From NCBI GenBank assembly GCA_030324005.1, contig JARDVH010000146.1, positions 27,243,952 to 27,307,951 of the forward strand: DNA of 64,000 bases. Reading direction: 5' to 3'. Shown one piece after another: positions 30,591 to 54,759 of this stretch. Origin of the DNA: Negaprion brevirostris. Its lineage: Eukaryota. The position numbers were made by a program, and so were the translations under genes. The notes under the pieces were generated by a model. That model searched no databases. It worked only from the letters and a program-made list of their open reading frames with translations, and was not told the origin of the DNA. The number at the start of each line of letters is the position of its first letter. Position 1 is the first letter of the stretch.

Positions 30591-31156
30591 GACATTGCAA
30601 AGAGTGGAAATCTGTCTAGATGATGAAACTTGCAAAGTCCTGGACCTGATATGTCATTCTTCATACACCTACTGTATTGAAGAGCGACGGTTTATAAATG
30701 GGGAAGTGACACTGCAGCTACGTGAAGCAATAATATCAGGAAACTCAAGGCCAGATTGCGGCAAGTGGAAGTGGGGAGTTTTTCCAGCCTTGAGCTGCTG
30801 CAGATTACTATATGATACTTGCGACCCACAGTCTGTTTACAATGCCAGAAGCAGATCTATCATGTGCTGTGATTTATCTTCCATAACAAACTATCCTTTA
30901 CACCCAGGTTGATGTTAATATGAATGACATCCACATCAAGGTATAGGTCTCTCCCTTGTTAGTTTTCATGAATCTGCACATAAATTGCAAAAAGGATCCT
31001 TGACTCCAGATTTGAAATTCCAGATTTGTCTTTATACCAACTGCTGTTTCGAACGAGTCTATGATTTTAGTCATTAGCGTATATGGAAAAGTTTAATGAA
31101 ACTTGTCAGAGACATTTAAATTTTGATCCTAGATCTCAATATAATAAATGAGATAC

Positions 31157-31267
31157 AGAATAGATTATGGAAAATGATTGATAGCATCACAATCTCTGTA
31201 GCAACCAATCATTTTCCATAATCTATTCTATTTCCATAATCTAGCATCACAATCTCTATAGCAACCA
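31157..31267. repeat. Perfect 24-bp inverted repeat interlocked with 26-bp and 13-bp direct repeats
   Basis: 31157-31180 AGAATAGATTATGGAAAATGATTG is the exact reverse complement of 31206-31229; 31182-31207 is repeated at 31242-31267 (1 mismatch); 31213-31225 at 31231-31243. Confidence 0.92.
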
Positions 31268-46479: not shown

Positions 46480-47600
46480 TGCTCACTGAAGAAAAGTGGC
46501 AGGCATGCCAAATTTCCTTATTCTTCTGAGAAAGTAGAGGCATTGTTAGGATTTCCGAACGATAATGTCGGCATGGGGGGGATCCAGGAGAGGTTGTTGA
46601 TGATCTGGACACCTAAAATCCTGAAGCTCTCAATCATTTCTACTTCATCTCAATTGATGTAACGGGCACGTCCTCCACTACGATTGCTGAAGTTGATGAC
46701 TATCTCCTTTGTTTCGTTGACACTGAGGAAGAGATTATTGTCGTCTCACTAGTTCACCAGATTCTCTATCTCATTCCGATGTCTTGCCATTGTTTGAGCT
46801 CTGACCCACTACAGTGGTGTCATCAGCAAACTTGAAAATTGAGTTGGAGAGGAATTTGGCCACACAGTCACAGGTATATAAAGAGTAGAGTAAAGGACTG
46901 AGGACACAGCCTTGTCGGGCACTGGAGTTGAGGATGATTGTGGAGGAGGTGTTACTGCCTACCCTTACTGATTGCGGTCTGTGGGTTAGGAAGTTCAGGA
47001 TCCAGTTGCAGAGGGAGCTGAGCCCTAGGCCACAGAGCTTGGACATGAATTTTGTATGAATAATGGTGCTAACGGCTGAGCAGTAGTCAATAAATAGGGG
47101 TCTACCATAGGTGTCTTTGTTATCCAGGTGTTCCAGGGTTGAATTAGGGCCAGGGAAATGGTGTCAGCTATGGACCTGCACTGGATCCAGGTAATCTGGG
47201 AGGCAGGAATTGCTTTATGCCACGATGTTTCAAAGCACTTCATGATGATGGATGTCAGAGCGACCGGACGAAAGTCATTAAGGCATGCTGCCTGGCTTTT
47301 CTTTGGTACAAGGATGATGGTTATCTTCTTGAAGCAGATAGGGACTTCAGATAGGTGTAAAGAGACGTTAAATATACCCCCTCAAGCTGGTCTGTGCAGG
47401 ATCTGAGTACTCGTCTGGATACCCCATCTAGCCCAGTCACTTTCCTTGGGATGACTTTCAAGAGGGCTGATCTGGTGTCTGCAATGGTGACCGTGGATAT
47501 GGGTTCTGCCGAGGCTTCTGGGGTGGAAGGCATGCCCTTGCTAACCTCTTACACGAAACAGGCATAGAATGCATTGAATTCAACAGAGAGGGGTACATTG
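46480..47600 (-). mobile_element. Rex1/Babar LINE RT region, decayed
   Basis: [46 protein letters not shown]; MKCFE; [11 protein letters not shown]. Confidence 0.92.
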
Positions 47601-51452: not shown

Positions 51453-51718
51453 TTGCTAAAAAAGAGATATTTTATTGAAGCTTTTTATCTTGCACTCATC
51501 ATGATAACTCGCCAGATAATAAATAGTAAAGGGAAAGACAATTTGTACTGCGTGGGAAGAGAGTGCTGATTGGTTGGCAAGTAAACTGTATTTGGTAGAG
51601 GCATTACCATGGAGAATGCAGCAGAAAATGGTAACTGCTTTAGTTCAAATTCAAACCAGGCAGATCGACTTGGATTGGTCAAGACATTGTCATGGGGAAT
51701 GAACCAGTGAATGGCTGC
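51453..51718 (-). mobile_element. ~270-bp non-coding hammerhead-bearing element, copy 1 (degenerate core)
   Basis: Reverse complement aligns to 54206-54481; core 51471-51508 reads GTTATC-ATGATGA-GTGCAAGAT-AAAA-AGCTTC-AATAA. Confidence 0.75.
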
Positions 51719-52479
51719 ACTGCTCCCCCCACCCTCCGGGACCTCTTCAATGCACAGAGTGTGGAGATTCAGGTGAGAACCTGAACTGTCAGAATAGTCG
51801 GGATTTAGAACAGCTTCCCTGCCAATTCAGGAATTTTGGGAGAACTGCCCCATATCTGTGGCTTCCAGCATGTGTACATGAGTCATGCGGATATTAATCA
51901 TAAATTGGTTTTCAGTGTAGTTCTTGGCACAATCAGGATTGTTAGGCAAGTGTTGCACAATTGCAGCATAGCATCAAATGTGAGTTTTGTAAGCACAGGC
52001 TTGCCTGGTTAGGTGTGGTCAGTGCGTTATCTGCAAAGGGACTCATTGTTTGATGTGATCCACAAGTCATTGGGATATACGGGACACATACCTGGCATCA
52101 CACTGGCACTAAAATTCATATATCACATGACTCATTTGAGTGAAGGGCATCATCCCTATAGAGGCAAATACCATCCATACTGCTACTGCATTGTAACAGT
52201 GAAATGGCTAGCTTCACCTGTTGCTCAATTTAGTGAGACAGTTTACCTTGCAGGGTAATTTGAGGTACAATGGGTACTTTTCTGGGCCAAAAGATCCGTC
52301 CATGAGTTTGCACGATATACAGCCTGCAATGATCTGATCGGGGTATCTTTTTTTTATTCAATCATGCGATGTGGGCACCACTGATTGGAACAGAATTTAT
52401 TGCCCATCCCTGATGGCATTTAGGAATCAACCACATTGGGTCTGGAGTCACATGTAGGCCAGACCAGGTAAGGATGACG

Positions 52480-53749
52480 GGAGTGATTCTAAAGTGTCGG
52501 ATTCGTATAAAAACTGGAGTAAATCCCGCTGACTTTCCAGCAGGAGTTTCAAAATAAATCTCCCACACTGTTTCTCAGCATGAAATTCAGTGGGCGGGAC
52601 CAATTCCCGCTGGAGAGGCTGGCAGCATTGCGCTGAGCACTGTGGCACAAGGGGCAGCACGGTGGCACAATGGTTAATATTGCTGCCTTACAGCACCAGA
52701 GACTCAGGTTTGATTCCCAACTTGTGTCACTGTCTGTGTGGAGTTTGTACATTCTCCACATGTCTGTGTGGGTTTCCTTTGGGTGCTCTGGTTTCCTCCC
52801 ACAATCCAAAGATAAGCAGGTTAGGTGGATTGGCCATGCTAAATTGCCCCTTGGTGTCCCAAAATTGGTAGGTTAGGGGGATTAGTGGGGTAAATACTTG
52901 GGATTATGGGGAATAGGTCAGGGTGGGATTGTCCCTTCTTGTCATGGGGTTTACATGAGGTTACAAGGATAGAGCCTGGGTGGGATTGTTGTCAGTGCAG
53001 ACTCGATGGGCTGAATGGCTTCCTTCTGCAATGTAAGGATCCTATCCTAAGTGCCAATCTGTCAGAGTGGAGATTGGTGGATGCACTGTAGCACCTGGCC
53101 TCCTGATCACTGGCCAGCTCGATTGCTGGCCAGCTCCACAACTCCTGGAACGCTGTCCCTCTGAATCTCCCATGGTCTGATTGCTGACAGCTGTGAACAT
53201 GTCCTTGACCCTCTCCCTGCCCCCAGCCCGTCTCGTTCTCCTCCACTTCCTGACAAGCGGCAGCCCCGATCTCCCAATCTGTCCGATACCTGGTGGGCAG
53301 TGCCAAGATGCCCTCTGGGCTTTGGCACTTTGCCCCTTAGGCAGTGCCAGTAGGCCCAGGCTAGCAGTGCCAGTTGGCAACACCCTGGGGGCACACCCCC
53401 TCTCCAACCGGGTCCACATGGCCCCCTTCACTCAAGCAGGATTGGGCCATGGCTGCCTGCAAGTGGGGACCATGCTGGAGTGAACCACTCCTCGTGTGTA
53501 GGAAGACACTAGCTGGCTTGGAGACTTCAGTCCAGGGCCCGCTAGTCATATGTAGATTAAAATTAGTATTTCCATAAATTATTCAGGTCCATGCCAGAAA
53601 TCGGTGTGGAACCGATGGCACCAGAAATCCATTGCTTGGAGAATTTCAGAGACCATTGTGCCAGTGAGGACACTGCAAAATGGCCGCTGCTCAAACCTCC
53701 TGGTCCGCTATGCTACAAAAGCAGCGCAGCGGGCTGGGAGAATTGCCCC
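52480..53749. mobile_element. Harbinger-like non-autonomous DNA transposon
   Basis: TIRs GGAGTGATTCT / AGAATTGCCCC (both derivable from GGGGCGATTCT); GC-rich TGGCA/TGCCA-rich interior. Confidence 0.7.
52651..53047 (+). mobile_element. HE1-type V-SINE nested in the DNA transposon
   Basis: GGGGCAGCACGGTGGCACAATGGTT head; CR1-type tail GGGCTGAATGGCTTCCTTCTGCAATGTAAGGAT. Confidence 0.9.
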
Positions 53750-54205
53750 TGACAGATTTCCTTGCTTACAGGCCATTATTGAACCACATGGATTTGCACA
53801 ATATTCAACAATGGTTTCAATAGACTTTTTATTTCAGACTTTTATTGAGTTCAAATTTCACCAACTGTGGAATGATGAGATTCAAACCCAAGTCCCCAGA
53901 GCAGTATTCTGGGCCTCTGAATTACTAGTCCAATGACAATGTCACTACACCACTGCCTTCCCCTTATCCTGCAGGATGTCTTTGATGCTCCTTATTTTAA
54001 CATCAAACTTACACAGTGAGCAGATGCCACGGGCCCTATTTATGAGGTTGATGACAAGGCCAATCTTATCGCGTGTGGAACATTAGGATTCTCAACATGA
54101 ATATTGACTCGTGGAAGTAGGCTTGTGGTAGACAGGAATGGAGAACATGTTGGTAGATTTCTCAACTAGCACATAGAAGAAAGTGAACTAAACCAAAACT
54201 TGGGG

Positions 54206-54481
54206 ACAGCCATTCTCTGGTTCATTCCCCATGGCAATGCCTGGACCAGTCGGAGGCGAGCTGCCTGGTTTTAACTTGAACAAGAGTATGGGCAGTTAAC
54301 TGCTTTCTGTTGCATCCTCCATGGCAATGCCTCTACAAATAAGAATCTATGAGCCAACCAACCAACAANNNNNNNNNNNNNNNNNNNNNNNNNNNNNNNN
54401 NNNNNNNNNGATATATCGTGTGTAGCTGTCCTGATGAGTGCAAGATGAAAAGTTTTGATAGCATGTCTCATTTTTCAGCAA
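54206..54481 (+). mobile_element. ~270-bp non-coding hammerhead-bearing element, copy 2 (Penelope pLTR or retrozyme-like)
   Basis: Inverted homolog of 51453-51718; two CCATGGCAATGC motifs, CCAA[T/C] boxes and a hammerhead near its 3' end. Confidence 0.75.
54425..54462 (+). ncRNA. Minimal type-I hammerhead ribozyme motif
   Basis: Stem I GCUGUC (54425-30) / GAUAGC (54457-62); core CUGAUGA (54431-37); mini stem II GU-GCAAG-AU; GAAA (54447-50); vestigial stem III AG[U/C]U plus UH site. Activity not shown. Confidence 0.7.
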
Positions 54482-54759
54482 CTCTGAACACTGTATTACT
54501 AAGTGACTATTTATATGATAGATGCCACAACTTTACACATTCAGAAAATGTAATTTTGCACCAGTGAGAATGTTATTCATGCATGATAAAAAGATGGAAT
54601 GACATGGCGCTATGTTGACTAACATATTAACCTTTCAGCATTGTCATTATATAAGATCCCAGCATACATTTTTAGGTTGAATGTCTCCACTTCTGAACAA
54701 ATCAGTTTAAAATATTTACTACAGGAAATCCAAGTCAAAAATAATCAAAAATGTAGATA

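Follow-up and report, generated by a model that had tools for sequence, protein, structure and literature searches.

Organization of the locus

The window, i.e., the whole 64,000-nucleotide stretch of Negaprion brevirostris DNA analysed here, contains the remnants of a Penelope-like element (PLE) and two arms of a repeat of approximately 270 bases, which form an inverted pair with a hammerhead motif at the end of each arm (Table 1). The two arms, designated A and B, are 80% identical over 155 alignment columns; in the 71 columns that make up the hammerhead end, identity is 72%. Motif B sits 3' of the endonuclease remnant and in sense to the open reading frame (ORF) of the element, and motif A has the equivalent position within the inverted copy. 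Arm A is separated from the break in the reverse transcriptase (RT) remnant by 19 bases (54188-54206) and contains 41 consecutive N immediately upstream of motif A. Altogether, the window holds 19 N runs, several of exactly 10 or 100 bases as in short-read scaffolds; true gap sizes may differ. Three contigs align out to positions 54513-54514, indicating that arm A bears the 3' tail of the family.

When the stop-riddled frame was used as a query, phmmer returned 415 relatives at E-values up to 0.001. Among nine relatives scanned with Pfam, RVT_1 was detected in seven and GIY-YIG in three, one of them above its cut-off, and the match to the window remnant is C-terminal. The endonuclease remnant alone gave no relevant match in Pfam, and a word-indexed homolog search returned nothing relevant. 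The relatives keep a DKG motif and CCHH-type residues, and their alignment contains no CX2-5CxxC linker, which argues against the Neptune clade. Searching the window with eight long relatives (tblastn) gave two minus-strand pieces, 54187-53960 and 52345-51857 (to approximately 51860), the former with 36-42% identity and E-values of 1e-6 to 1e-10. In the alignment with relative P0018, the RT piece ends at amino acid 481 and the endonuclease piece resumes at amino acid 482. A search of the window with 30 long relatives revealed no further PLE or RT remnant; RVT_1 remnants are present elsewhere in the window, at 46774-47163 and 385-714.

The 1,614 bases that split the ORF contain copies of two repeat families, which we take to be SINE-like and LINE-end-like, respectively. 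Since both families recur many times in the window, this segment can be attributed to later insertions. The 140-base segment that separates arm B from the endonuclease remnant is likely a later insertion or replacement. The consecutive-residue junction, the nested repeats and the lack of any other PLE remnant in the window together point to one 5'-truncated element that reads leftward. Judged from its sequence, the locus thus appears to be a single dead 5'-truncated PLE with an inverted copy of its pseudo-LTR at most 19 bases from the truncation point, a layout that is hidden here beneath later insertions. The locus shows RT followed by GIY-YIG in one frame, as in C-terminal EN+ PLEs, together with a pseudo-LTR that has a one-sided tail. 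The initial annotation had assigned the motif to a Penelope-type element on the architecture of the ribozyme; the RT and GIY-YIG remnants bear this out.

Other repeats were observed in the window. Two tandem duplications with 76-91% identity are located at 47014-47603/48742-49357 (spacing of approximately 1.74 kb) and 18463-18783/20377-20704 (approximately 1.92 kb). MITE-like inverted repeats, 94-96% identical and 0.6-0.7 kb apart, lie at 42065-42160/42892-42987 and 37189-37270/37883-37964, and there is a near-perfect 87-base hairpin at 31149-31235.

Table 1. Positions of the element remnants, the hammerhead motifs and their parts in the window, and of hammerheads of an unrelated repeat family in other contigs.
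Feature	Position	Strand	Remarks
Arm B, 3' pseudo-LTR of the element	51453-51717	-	carries motif B
Sister hammerhead motif B	51471-51508	-	sole near copy of motif A in the window
Segment of 140 bases between endonuclease remnant and arm B	51718-51857		no other copy in the window
Linker and GIY-YIG endonuclease remnant	51857-52345	-	at least 5 in-frame stops
Nest of apparent later insertions, 1.6 kb	52346-53959		splits the ORF
PLE reverse transcriptase end and thumb remnant	53960-54187	-	2 in-frame stops; 5' truncation point
Arm A, apparent inverted 5'-truncated pseudo-LTR copy	54207-54481	+	carries motif A
Hammerhead motif A, 38 nt	54425-54462	+	minimal type I
Stem I 5' strand, motif A	54425-54430	+	
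CUGAUGA box, motif A	54431-54437	+	
Helix II region, motif A	54438-54446	+	9 nt
GAAA box, motif A	54447-54450	+	
Helix III hexamer, motif A	54450-54455	+	self-complementary only via two tandem G·U pairs
U16.1, motif A	54455	+	
H17 (U), motif A	54456	+	predicted cleavage 3' of 54456
Stem I 3' strand, motif A	54457-54462	+	
Family 3' tail, approximately 30 bases	54482-54514	+	on arm A, absent from arm B
Hammerheads of an unrelated family	L004:1745-1802	-	
	L011:2988-3045		
	L013:170-227		
	L014:510-567		
	L027:15-72		

A minimal type I hammerhead and its sister copy

The sequence and position that the initial annotation gave for a minimal type I hammerhead ribozyme match the letters of the plus strand exactly. 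Motif A has the type I topology, with a stem I longer than the 3 bp required: as originally described, its 6 pairs comprise five Watson-Crick pairs and one G·U, and the CUGAUGA and GAAA boxes are intact. The closing pair of stem I is preserved, as are all 11 core bases (CUGANGA plus GAAA), and the UH site (U16.1-H17) lies where it had been placed, with the same predicted cut. Helix II comprises at most 2 bp, a G·U at 10.1-11.1 followed by a U-A, closed by a 5-nt loop, and there is no extra nucleotide 3' of A9. The G10.1-C11.1 pair is absent from both copies in the window, motifs A and B having G·U instead; the G·U nature of this pair in motif A was missing from the earlier description. A kissing interaction of loop II through a 4-nt palindrome was considered and dropped, as no evidence supported it.

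Such a short motif could in principle be a chance match to a simple pattern. The bare core pattern occurs 11 times in the window, at the level expected by chance (7.3 +/- 2.6), Rfam scans returned no hammerhead match either in the whole window (E up to 5) or in 54300-54600 (E up to 10), and folding z-scores of -0.05 and -0.74 were not significant; ARAGORN found no tRNA. By contrast, a full descriptor combining the core, a helix II of at least 2 pairs, the UH site and stem I had a single match in the window and was matched in none of 300 dinucleotide-resampled copies when stem I was set to at least 6 pairs (3/300 at 5 or more, 8/300 at 4 or more). Moreover, motif A is placed 3' of a GIY-YIG remnant, where eight out of ten relatives have their own hammerhead. 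This context refutes a chance match, whose probability we consider close to nil. Motif A is real and explained by its context: it is an ordinary PLE hammerhead of a described class, the only unusual feature being the very short helix II.

Motif B was described in the initial annotation as differing in stem I (GUUAUC/AAUAA) and keeping AAGCUU followed by C. This description is correct, motif B retaining C17 and a perfect palindromic helix III hexamer, but changes in the core had been omitted: C3 and G12 are both replaced by A, and the closing pair of stem I is broken. G12 is the general base of the hammerhead (PMC6155905), so that motif B is very likely catalytically dead, judging from its sequence. 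In stem I, two of the six pairs are broken in B relative to A; across these two copies only, one position has changed on both sides (C-G vs. U-A) and another pairs as G·U in one copy and A-U in the other. The palindromic stretch 15.2-16.2 is perfect in B, whereas in A it is self-complementary only with the tandem G·U pairs. It should be borne in mind that the 'consensus' AAGCUU has one sister copy as its basis.

Predicted folding and activity of motif A

When the 38-mer is folded by itself, the predicted probability of stem I is 0.94-0.98 and that of the 10.1-11.1 pair 0.12; in a 111-nt context the probability of stem I falls to 0.00. A helix III formed within the monomer of motif A would require a 2-nt loop. 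Self-pairing of the helix III hexamer was predicted at +3.4 kcal/mol for A and -4.3 kcal/mol for B, in agreement with the earlier suggestion that stem III is weakened in A, and a hammerhead dimer of motif A reaches a predicted -1.4 kcal/mol vs. -14.7 kcal/mol for the dimer minimum. These nearest-neighbour energies leave tertiary contacts out of account and were obtained for the window copies, with no intact copy of the family as a control.

Motifs A and B lie on opposite strands, a point missing from the initial annotation, and therefore no tandem dimer is possible in cis; with its broken core, B offers A no cis partner either. Together with the G·U at 10.1-11.1 and the wobbling helix III, this leads to the prediction that motif A is weak or silent. 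The initial annotation had likewise suspected a slow or inactive copy, and this is likely. Arguing against such a reading, the closing pair of stem I and all 11 core bases are intact, and stem I is predicted to form in the bare 38-mer. The U found at position 17 of motif A is common in natural PLE hammerheads (PMC4209133).

Age of the arms and survival of the core

The divergence between arms A and B (K2P) is 0.235, i.e., approximately 10% change per arm. The differences comprise 17 transitions and 14 transversions (14 out of 31), compared with ratios of 22/5 and 30/9 in two pairs of SINE-like copies, and the arms diverge just upstream of stem I. Given the many transversions and the upstream divergence, the arms may derive from two subfamilies, in which case the age calculated from their divergence would be an upper bound.

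Conservation of the core could suggest that selection maintains motif A as a functional ribozyme of the host or as a signal for RNA processing. The core, the UH site and the 6 bp of stem I are intact in A while the core of the sister has been lost, and the insertion is common to organisms A, B and C plus one unlabelled run, where X1 may be the source sample itself. Nevertheless, an 11-base core would survive approximately 10% change per arm with a probability of about 0.31, that is, in around three out of ten copies this old, and an identical 15-base run between the arms arises in 68% of simulations. The weakened helices II and III and the lack of a cis partner also speak against a working ribozyme. 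The organisms compared are too close to test constraint, and a scan of 43 of the 81 ORFs, a weak test, revealed no host exon and only two RVT_1 matches. Selection on motif A is thus very improbable: nothing at the locus calls for it, and chance survival most likely accounts for the intact core.

Copies of the family and related loci

Contigs from four public runs were placed on 54410-54560. Between 1,802 and 2,365 contigs per run fell on the motif in all four runs, nearly all at that end of the repeat which bears the motif. Over the core, contig depths added up to 4,000-7,000x those of the flank, a figure that is not a copy number and is read only as 'high-copy'. The family of motif A is high-copy. 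Among the variants, G>A at 54447 was found in 7-12%, C at 54456 in 21-22%, and G>A at 54457 in 15-17%; this pattern would be consistent with ancestral C residues at 11.1 and 17 and subsequent CpG decay. At a listing threshold of 8%, and in a pile-up that favours query-like copies and omits differences near contig ends, no T>C was listed at 54446, 54453 or 54459. The letters at these three positions, apparently decayed, may therefore be subfamily states.

The right junction of the insertion was bridged by one contig in each of the four runs, with 0, 3, 2 and 3 differences, respectively, in approximately 125 bases, showing that the insertion is common to close relatives. Two classes of contig can be distinguished by their start, at 54426 or 54427, and the 15 bases upstream in arm A are present in only a few contigs. 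Two contigs (X1 record 1 and X2 record 11) each contain two opposite-strand copies of the motif, head to head and 137 bases apart. They represent another inverted pair of the family, common to two runs, although the zero-difference count of one piece may be an artefact.

Ten loci with related ORFs were taken from genome contigs, eight of them from one assembly. In eight of the ten, a minimal hammerhead whose helix III is palindromic lies downstream of the ORF and on its strand; an inverted copy at the 5' end was found in three, with arms 91-99% identical. One of these loci (L036) has two identical motifs facing outward, and another (L039) has an inverted arm of 292 bases much like that of the window. 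Helix II comprises 4-7 bp in the related loci, longer than that of motif A. The contigs of these loci (L032-L041), with their Penelope-like ORFs and hammerheads, are titled as bacterial MAGs and probably consist of animal DNA. Five of them (L032, L037, L038, L039 and L040) exhibit a core covariation in which U3-A8 replaces C3-G8, as reported for Schistosoma elements.

Comparison with known PLE ribozymes

The family shares several traits with the minimal hammerheads of metazoan PLEs (Cervera and de la Pena, 2014, PMC4209133): type I topology, CUGANGA and GAAA boxes (intact in motif A) without a stable helix III, a 15.1-16.1 stretch that in motif A is self-complementary only through G·U pairs, a pseudo-LTR site 3' of the endonuclease, and thousands of dispersed single copies. 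The layout also resembles that in Fig. S4A of the same work, where a further motif, encoded on the opposite strand, sits at the 5' end of a truncated element. Helix II of motif A spans no more than 2 bp within 9 nt, whereas the text of Fig. S3 gives 3 bp or more for its 56 representatives. Motif A also differs from them in lacking the extra base after A9, in having a G·U in place of G10.1-C11.1, and in its 6-nt hexamer and 6-bp stem I. Given the departure of this copy from the described pattern at G10.1-C11.1, the extra base and the length of helix II, the family is assigned to this class by context, and copy A is regarded as degenerate. There is no chondrichthyan among the species of Fig. S3.

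A similar combination of likeness and difference was found with the other systems. Like the small PLE hammerhead variants of Lunse, Weinberg and Breaker (RNA Biol 14:1499; PMC5785218), as summarised in two reviews (PMC6765202, PMC6466107), the family has a short palindromic stem III of the kind associated with dimer cleavage and a need for tandem copies; unlike them, the motifs in the window are inverted rather than in tandem. The C-terminal EN+ PLEs (Penelope/Poseidon, Neptune and Nematis; PMC8557442) share with the locus RT followed by GIY-YIG in one frame, a pseudo-LTR with a hammerhead, 5' truncation, an adjacent inverted 5'-truncated copy (their Fig. 2) and a one-sided tail of 30-40 bp, whereas the element in the window is dead and split by later insertions. 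In the literature consulted, no description was found of this family or of a PLE hammerhead with a 2-bp helix II; the survey by Lunse et al. or the supplements of the 2026 preprint cited below may include the family.

The non-LTR retrozymes of animals, non-autonomous tandem repeats with a hammerhead per unit that spread via circular RNA, offer another reading of the locus. They have type I hammerheads and units on the 300-base scale, are derived from PLE pseudo-LTRs and occur in one sampled chondrichthyan with a mean of 363 bp (bioRxiv 10.64898/2026.07.22.740005); the repeat unit in the window is likewise about 300 bases. However, the locus contains no tandem array and no head-to-tail repeat; its copies form an inverted pair joined to remnants of RT and endonuclease. 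A retrozyme unit is contradicted at the locus and highly improbable.

Proposed role of the hammerhead and origin of the inverted arm

We propose, with a probability of about 0.85, that motif A is a decayed PLE hammerhead that would once have been a dimer-type cleaver at the family level and is now probably weak or silent. In PLE minimal hammerheads, helix III is too short in the monomer and two motifs pair through their palindromes, and a role in cutting element RNA out of tandem precursors has been proposed (PMC4209133, PMC6765202, PMC6466107). By analogy, when the family was active the ribozyme likely helped to cut the element RNA as a dimer. In a tandem transcript, the helix III hexamers of two motifs would pair with each other and the stem I strands would be exchanged, giving two cores. 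These would cleave 3' of H17 with G12 acting as general base (PMC6155905), and the unit-length RNA so released would then be reverse transcribed. Even in dimeric form, published PLE minimal hammerheads show poor cleavage (PMC4209133), and thus the family-level role is only proposed.

At the locus itself, the inverted arm A would have been made by reverse transcription and integration. Motifs A and B point outward, so that no transcript would carry both in sense; in a read-through RNA, the arms would fold into a long duplex, with predicted pairing energies of -68.6 (over the hammerhead ends) and -192.5 kcal/mol.

Alternatively, arm A could stem from a second insertion event, or from a second template of another subfamily, at the site where the first element is broken at its 5' end. 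The both-sided change and the G·U/A-U difference in stem I are what this would predict, since with an arm A from another subfamily the differences between A and B in stem I would be real subfamily covariation. The high proportion of transversions between the arms compared with the SINE-like pairs, the existence of two contig classes and the rarity of the 15 bases upstream in arm A point in the same direction, and PLEs are said to insert beside existing copies (PMC6765202). Against it, the junction lies at most 19 bases from the RT break with no further RT remnant in the window, the arms are 91-99% identical in all three related loci with this layout, and two of the six stem I pairs are plainly broken in B. 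We therefore hold a separate origin of arm A to be unlikely, albeit with some weight, and retain as the preferred reading a single element with an inverted copy of its own pseudo-LTR.

A more far-reaching possibility is that the hammerhead of the family, among the smallest in nature (38 nt, with a 2-bp helix II), acts as an obligate trans-dimer. The 6-nt palindrome would tether a pair of element RNAs in the manner of a retroviral dimer-initiation site, and in a single integration two templates would then be copied in opposite directions. Inverted arms resembling two subfamilies joined at one break would then be the footprint of the process. We regard this as improbable. Setting it aside, the decayed hammerhead proposed above adds one high-copy vertebrate family to the described PLE class, and the leads it offers are the 2-bp helix II and arms that may be of mixed origin. 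The 2-bp helix II of the family could serve to test how small natural hammerheads can be, and its many inverted pairs could show whether arms come from one RNA or two, a question that bears on what PLE hammerheads do. Copy A itself would be a poor reagent for either purpose. Hammerhead repeats, for their part, have been found in one chondrichthyan (bioRxiv 10.64898/2026.07.22.740005).

Searches beyond the family

The exact family pattern had no match in metagenome contigs or in viral contigs, and protein scans of the viral contigs revealed no relative. A looser pattern was found at 31 loci; the hexamer is built into this pattern, and these loci therefore give it no independent support. Five of the 31, all from one assembly, have stems I and II of 4 bp, the other 26 being chance-like. 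The five (L004, L011, L013, L014 and L027; Table 1) belong to an unrelated dispersed repeat family with a minimal hammerhead, in which helix II covaries (G-C vs. U-A), and no RT match was found at any of them. In L004 and L011, the hammerhead lies approximately 1.3 kb downstream of a frame of 530-550 amino acids with two C2H2-like motifs.
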